64,000 nucleotides of DNA from assembly GCF_003334305.1 (NCBI RefSeq), contig NZ_QOWS01000004.1. One strand, written 5' to 3'. Positions 37,480 to 37,710 of this stretch are shown in pieces. The notes beneath the pieces are model-generated. The model had not been told where the DNA came from, searched no databases, and was given only the letters and a program-made list of their open reading frames with translations. A program made the translations under genes and the position numbers. Within the stretch, counting starts at the first letter, position 1; each line of letters begins with the position of its first letter. This DNA comes from Escherichia coli. GTDB taxonomy: Bacteria > Pseudomonadota > Gammaproteobacteria > Enterobacterales > Enterobacteriaceae.

Positions 37480-37710
37480 TCAGACCCCGTTGGCAAGCCG
37501 CGTGGTTAACTCATCCATAAAATATCGCGCAATGGCAGGCATCCCCTTTCGCCCCGCAAATAAGGCATATAACAATCTGGGTATGCCGCTCCACGGTGCA
37601 AACAGGCGCACCAGTTCACCGTTCGCAAGCCCCTGTTTACAGGCAAATTGGGGCAATAACGCCACGCCATTCAACACAACCAGGGCGCGAACTCGCTGAG
37701 CGAAATGCAT
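37480..37710 (-). pseudogene. yqfE: Remnant of a LysR-family regulator (C-terminal fragment only), yqfE-like
   Basis: 76-aa ORF resembling only the C-terminal effector domain of a LysR protein; no HTH-containing N-terminus; wedged between rpiA and argP. Confidence 0.6.

Follow-up and report, generated by a model that had tools for sequence, protein, structure and literature searches.

The 76-codon ORF between rpiA and argP is what remains of a gene for a LysR-type regulator, most of which has been deleted, and we are confident that it is the known pseudogene yqfE, a non-functional gene remnant that arose by ordinary reductive decay. The window analysed here, a stretch of 64,000 nucleotides, derives from an Escherichia coli chromosome and has the local gene order serA (35278..36510, minus strand), rpiA (36765..37424, minus strand), the ORF (37480..37710, minus strand), argP (37852..38745, plus strand) and scpA. 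The ORF starts with ATG and was delimited by the ORF listing, the K-12 annotation and Pfam. In the record of K-12 MG1655 (NC_000913.3, 3059381-3059611), yqfE (b2915) is annotated as a 231-bp pseudogene flanked by rpiA (b2914) and argP (b2916), and the category of the locus is therefore already known. The allele of the window is 100% identical in strains WCHEC020031 and N780. UniRef groups the window protein and the K-12 variant in a cluster named ‘Uncharacterized protein YqfE’, and the 90% cluster of YqfE contains 528 distinct protein variants. The NCBI pipeline (PGAP) annotates a CDS at this position under the labels ‘hypothetical protein’, ‘LysR substrate-binding domain-containing protein’ or ‘type 2 periplasmic-binding domain-containing protein’. 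All complete E. coli genomes (5426/5426) matched a 651-bp query that spans the ORF, with colinearity over at least 80% of the query in 5158 of them.

Only the C-terminal end of the regulator is encoded by the ORF. Residues 15-72 of the product matched positions 151-208 of the 209 positions of the Pfam model LysR_substrate (PF03466; E 8.5e-6), and NCBIfam aligned the product to positions 237-297 of the 303 positions of the LysR model PRK14997. When the intact 298-aa LysR protein of E. coli F2_81 (see below) was used as query in tblastn, its residues 236-298 were located at 37671..37483 with 97% identity (E 8e-36), so that a chance resemblance can be dismissed. The Pfam search gave no match to the DNA-binding domain HTH_1 (PF00126) in the 76-aa product. 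The original prediction had described an ORF between rpiA and argP that resembles the C-terminal effector domain of LysR-type regulators alone and lacks the DNA-binding N-terminus, and both points are confirmed by the ORF listing, Pfam and NCBIfam: HTH_1 was not found and residues 1-235 are absent. It had also suggested a tblastn search of the gap in all frames with a full-length LysR query. Such a search with the ancestral residues 1-240 against 37650-37860 recovered no N-terminal coding remnants, the best hit being 14 aa long (E 0.069). The gene is thus not complete in the window, and a complete copy is seen at the same site in other strains.

A functional LysR-type regulator of this kind would be expected to have about 300 aa, an N-terminal HTH_1 domain, a complete LysR_substrate domain (~209 positions) and a divergent target operon. 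The intact orthologue spans positions 2-208 of the effector-domain model, while the yqfE fragment has no HTH_1 domain, is 76 aa long and covers 58 of the 209 positions, the last ~28%, and the divergent gene cluster has been deleted save for ~85 bp. Since the DNA-binding domain is missing and the effector domain is reduced to its last ~28%, the yqfE product cannot act as a LysR regulator. The LysR effector domain has a two-lobed fold, and a fragment of ~28% should be unable to fold alone. We would expect the product to be without activity.

The intact ancestral locus is present in other genomes. According to the locus annotations of E. coli F2_81 and GF4-3, the rpiA-argP interval contains four genes, one on the rpiA strand and three divergent from it. 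The gene on the rpiA strand encodes an intact LysR-type regulator of 298 aa, and the divergent genes encode an FMN-dependent NADH-azoreductase (azoR-like, 209 aa), a DUF1471/BhsA-like protein (86 aa) and a ‘ferredoxin reductase family’ protein (441 aa). The 441-aa protein has the domains Ferric_reduct, FAD_binding_8 and NAD_binding, which is a NOX-like architecture. The three-gene divergent cluster is located at 7178-9472 of the F2_81 locus (L002 in our set) and is also found at loci L001 and L020-L023. The intact LysR protein, present in E. coli SMS-3-5, F2_81 and GF4-3 (e.g. WP_000568123.1, WP_072169413.1), contains HTH_1 at residues 4-63 and LysR_substrate at 88-294 (Pfam). Its best NCBIfam models are PRK14997, YafC and AaeR, all with scores under the cut-off, and the closest solved structures are 3szp/3t1b (E 7e-36).

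The 3.1-kb island sequence was found in 248 of the 5426 complete E. coli genomes (~4.6%), for example in SMS-3-5 and an ST69 isolate, and was nearly complete in 233. Intact versions stand at the rpiA-argP site in E. coli GF4-3, F2_81, SMS-3-5, TUM18780, D8 and JX21CE8, and in a minority of E. coli genomes the match to the 651-bp query stops within the ORF. The order rpiA-LysR-(azoR)-DUF1471-FRE-argP also occurs in Escherichia sp. E1V33, E. whittamii, Escherichia sp. MOD1-EC7003 and a Pseudocitrobacter MAG, the last without the azoreductase. Full-length orthologues at the syntenic position, which are expected in relatives if yqfE is a pseudogene, therefore exist in E. coli carriers and in four other species.

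In many carriers the island, too, is undergoing decay. Several E. coli genomes have insertions of IS1 or IS5 and partial deletions in it, the reductase gene is split in JX21CE8 (L023 2947-4271) and is in fragments or has internal deletions in Escherichia sp. E1V33, E. whittamii and MOD1-EC7003, and the LysR gene of MOD1-EC7003 has a frameshift. GF4-3 has an insertion of ~120 bp between rpiA and the LysR stop codon (L001 6160-6278). It has imperfect terminal inverted repeats of 25 nt and a core GTGAATCCCCAGGAGCTTACAGAAGTAAGTGACTGGGGTGAGCG and looks like an ERIC/IRU repeat. The element went in at the TATA of the putative -10 region of rpiA and regenerated it. The rpiA-LysR spacer is longer in locus L008 as well.

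Alignment of the window to the F2_81 locus gives the breakpoints of the scar. The window is colinear with L002 5402-6373 from 36701 to 37672 (99.3%, blastn), and the LysR 3' end, comprising residues 236-298 and the stop codon, occupies 37480..37672 (193 bp, minus strand) by blastn colinearity and tblastn. LysR homology stops at 37672 and azoreductase homology starts at 37673. The 3' end of the azoR-like gene, with residues 182-207 and a few more codons, takes up 37673..37757 (~85 bp, plus strand): blastn aligned 37673-37733 to L002 7720-7781 in the azoreductase 3' end (90%) and tblastn placed residues 182-207 at 37674..37751 (E 2.8e-13). The plus-strand frame of this remnant reads TQPGRELAERNALAQIPDL..FNH, and that of the parent TQPGRELAEQNALAQIPDLITQVFNHYV*. 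Codons 1-13 of yqfE, including the ATG, are antisense of the azoreductase remnant and only codons 14-76 are derived from LysR, so the yqfE ORF is an accidental junction chimera. The likeness to LysR that had been ascribed to the ORF consequently holds for codons 14-76 but not for codons 1-13 (37672-37710).

On the other side of the scar, the conserved argP leader and proximal promoter region starts at 37796 and extends to 37851 (plus strand; blastn, alignment). The window from 37796 to 39000 corresponds to L002 9487-10691 (98%, blastn), and the leader aligns across Escherichia and Pseudocitrobacter. The second deletion junction contains a 38-bp segment (37758..37795), which was evaluated by blastn and by comparison with shuffled sequences and could be filler or what is left, after strong divergence, of the 3' end of the lost ferric-reductase gene. 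Its similarity to the deleted DUF1471-FRE segment was not significant (220 of 500 shuffles scored as high), its resemblance to the last 30-60 bp of the FRE 3' end was marginal (95 of 2000 shuffles for the last 60 bp), and no significant match was found to the rest of the window or to any of the fetched loci. Permissive tblastn searches recognised nothing of the DUF1471 gene, the reductase or LysR residues 1-235 in the window. Given the breakpoints of LysR, the azoreductase and the argP leader, at least two deletions are needed, one of ~1.35 kb (L002 6374-7719) and one of ~1.7 kb (L002 ~7810-9486). Microhomology was not evident at the first junction, where no clear repeat of at least 4 bp was found in any of 7 intact alleles. 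The K-12, APEC O18 and O157:H7 alleles, divergent as they are, have identical junctions, which suggests that the double deletion arose once and spread by homologous recombination.

Decay of the remnant is continuing. An in-frame deletion of 45 bp (37605-37649, 15 codons) was present in 7 of 25 genome records, which were evenly spaced among the matches to the 651-bp query, and affects O157:H7 and several other lineages. The 45-bp segment itself was found by megablast in 2776 of the 5426 genomes, a number that is only a lower bound for its carriers because diverged alleles fall under the sensitivity of megablast. In O157:H7 Z1767 and in KE40 the ATG has changed to TTG, a stop is present at codon 5 and no CDS is annotated. 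Most of the sampled genomes still have an open frame. Comparison of 14 short alleles showed that the variants they have in common with intact alleles comprise six synonymous and one non-synonymous change. Variation that arose while the gene was working would be expected to look like this, and these variants probably predate the deletion or were recombined in. Changes private to the short alleles comprise six synonymous versus seven to eight non-synonymous events, the latter being R62L, R62Q, Y48H, P46L, P39Q, P39S and L28F. The private non-synonymous to synonymous ratio of ~1.2 is lower than the ~2.5-3 expected under strict neutrality, but with 13-14 events the difference is not significant; formally, weak residual constraint on the remnant is compatible with these counts. 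The 45-bp deletion, the loss of the start with a nonsense codon and the private changes in this sample of 14 alleles are the further disruptions and relaxed constraint expected of a pseudogene.

The neighbouring proteins are highly conserved, with RpiA identical in all genomes examined and ArgP in all but one. Nucleotide diversity (pi) of the remnant in a sample of 7 alleles was 0.054 at third codon positions versus 0.008 at first and second positions, and most of the third-position excess is due to the variants in common with intact alleles. The overall pi in the remnant (0.023) is comparable to the third-position pi of rpiA (0.019) and argP (0.036). The window itself has a tandem GG-to-AA change (plus strand) at 37574-37575 that results in P46L. 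Residue 46 is a proline in all Escherichia orthologues examined, and the change of the window also occurs in XJ34, NT1F31 and FT130. The short alleles differ in which intact alleles they resemble: the K-12-type alleles match the F2_81 intact allele at synonymous variants, the group with the 45-bp deletion and KE40 match SMS-3-5 at 37600 and 37555, and the APEC-type alleles match alleles of other Escherichia species. This mosaic of variants in common suggests that deleted alleles have recombined with intact ones, or that the deletion has spread in this way.

The direction of change could in principle have been the opposite, with the short form being ancestral and the LysR-azoreductase-DUF1471-reductase segment being a later insertion in a minority of strains. 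The rarity of the island in E. coli (4.6% of complete genomes) and the unusual divergence of its alleles among themselves (95-98% identity) would fit such an insertion. However, two island genes have left truncated, in-register ends in the short form, which an insertion is unable to create, and the gene order is common to three other Escherichia species and Pseudocitrobacter. Furthermore, the annotations of the E. coli loci examined show no mobile-element features flanking the segment. The two truncated gene ends effectively refute the insertion, to which we assign next to no probability; together with the long form in other species they mean that the short form was derived by deletion. A different question is whether the ORF left by the deletions has become a real small protein, in which a LysR C-terminal fragment with a new 13-residue N-terminus would for example interfere with the oligomerisation of LysR-type regulators. 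The ORF is intact in most genomes and called as a CDS by PGAP, it is preceded by an AGGGA motif ~10 nt upstream of the ATG, and the private non-synonymous to synonymous ratio lies somewhat below the neutral expectation. Against this stand the 15-codon deletion in about a quarter of the sampled genomes, the two alleles with a lost start codon and a nonsense codon, and radical replacements at residues that are invariant in intact orthologues (P46L, Y48H, R62L/Q, P39S/Q). From what is generally known of LysR proteins, a fragment covering 58 of the 209 effector-model positions is not expected to form the two-lobed fold alone, and the K-12 curators label the gene as a pseudogene. It therefore seems very unlikely that yqfE is a real protein, and we give equally little credence to the chimeric 76-aa ORF being translated and kept, in the genomes where it is open, as a micro-protein that modulates other LysR-type regulators.

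The scar DNA, rather than its product, might have been co-opted for regulation, with the LysR remnant serving as promoter context for rpiA and the azoreductase remnant and the 38-bp segment as the upstream part of the argP promoter; the deletion would then have rewired argP control compared with island-bearing strains. The LysR stop codon is separated from the rpiA start by a spacer of 55 bp (37425..37479, minus strand), delimited by reading of the sequence, which probably contains the rpiA promoter. The minus strand has a perfect TATAAT (37464..37459) at a distance of 35 nt upstream from the rpiA ATG, and the corresponding -35 position would overlap the LysR stop codon. On the argP side, the short and intact forms have only the 56 bp before the argP ATG (37796-37851) in common and everything further upstream differs; in the intact strains argP begins ~70 bp after the ferric-reductase stop codon. 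Any argP promoter elements beyond 56 bp upstream would in most E. coli be built from scar DNA. In addition, the rpiA-yqfE spacer and the argP leader have no variable site among 7 short-form alleles. These observations are in favour of co-option, but a two-hexamer consensus scan of 37380-37900 gave no promoter- or terminator-like sites, and loss of the 45 bp within the LysR remnant is tolerated. Variation in the region is highest in the azoreductase remnant and the 38-bp segment (pi 0.035-0.038), which speaks against strong constraint on these two parts. Moreover, the reported activation of iciA/argP by PhoB was not reproduced by genome-wide ChIP-seq and RNA-seq (PMC10294691). Taking both sides together we consider co-option of the scar unlikely. 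With respect to RNA genes, an InvenireSRNA screen scored the yqfE_argP intergenic region at 0.64 as a CsrB/C-like CsrA-binding RNA candidate (PMC8144298). This region corresponds to 37711-37851 of the window, where Rfam finds nothing, as it found no RNA families in the whole of 37300-37950 (E<=1).

For the preferred reading, decay by deletion, we propose the following history. The Escherichia ancestor had the 298-aa LysR gene and the divergent azoR-like/DUF1471-BhsA-like/NOX-like reductase cluster between rpiA and argP. In the lineage from which the now dominant E. coli allele stems, a deletion of ~1.35 kb took away the divergent promoter region together with codons 1-235 of LysR and codons 1 to ~181 of the azoreductase, and a deletion of ~1.7 kb took away the DUF1471 and ferric-reductase genes. 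Left over are 193 bp of the LysR 3' end joined to ~85 bp of the azoreductase 3' end, where a chance ATG on the azoreductase antisense opens a frame of 76 codons that continues in the former LysR frame. The scar DNA probably persists passively, and its rpiA-proximal end may also persist through adjacency to the rpiA promoter. In this scheme the ancestry, the breakpoints, the missing N-terminus and the ongoing decay are shown by the sequences, and we infer the lack of activity of the protein, the order and number of the deletion events and the role of promoter proximity.

The literature on yqfE consists of incidental mentions only, namely a deletion list and the InvenireSRNA score for the yqfE-argP region, and nothing relevant was found under b2915. 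New in this analysis are the explicit reconstruction of the ancestral locus and its breakpoints, the tracing of the yqfE start to the antisense of a second gene remnant and the share of complete genomes that have the intact locus. These details leave the category of the locus, ordinary reductive decay, unchanged and their significance reaches little past annotation hygiene. Automated pipelines call the scar protein-coding in thousands of E. coli genomes, whereas the curated K-12 record has a pseudogene, and the intact alleles reveal precisely which parts are gone and bear out the pseudogene call. They also show that K-12 and most other E. coli have lost a presumably LysR-controlled azoreductase/DUF1471/NOX-like reductase cluster that ~5% of the strains keep. 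For studies on the argP promoter it is relevant that short-form and island strains have sequences of different origin beyond 56 bp upstream of the argP start.

Compared with known systems, the ancestral regulator belongs to the same superfamily as ArgP (IciA), with which it shares the HTH_1 and LysR_substrate architecture. BLASTP between the two gave 25% identity over 36 aa (E 0.016), and on the NCBIfam ArgP/LysG models the ancestral protein scored 56.4, 55.5 and 51.7 bits against cut-offs of 297, 197 and 273.6. With neither a model score above the cut-off nor clear pairwise similarity, it falls outside the ArgP/LysG subfamily, and close paralogy to ArgP is ruled out. The original prediction had proposed ‘a decayed paralog or deletion scar’. 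The deletion scar stands, since an intact gene occurs at the same site elsewhere and residues 1-235 are gone; because the similarity to ArgP is at the family level only, ‘deletion scar of a separate LysR gene’ is an apt description and ‘decayed paralog of argP’ is not. The intact LysR gene at the rpiA-argP locus is the direct counterpart of the remnant: between its residues 236-298 and codons 14-76 of the ORF the identity is 97-98%, and it has the same stop codon and the same 55-bp distance to rpiA as yqfE. The intact locus differs from the window in having HTH_1, the whole effector domain and the divergent azoR-like/DUF1471/NOX-like cluster, which is the presumed regulatory target. K-12 yqfE and the ORF of the window are equal in locus, strand and length (231 bp), and their 76-aa products differ solely at P46L. 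Judged by sequence, we see no difference of substance between them and regard the window as carrying a minor allele of yqfE.
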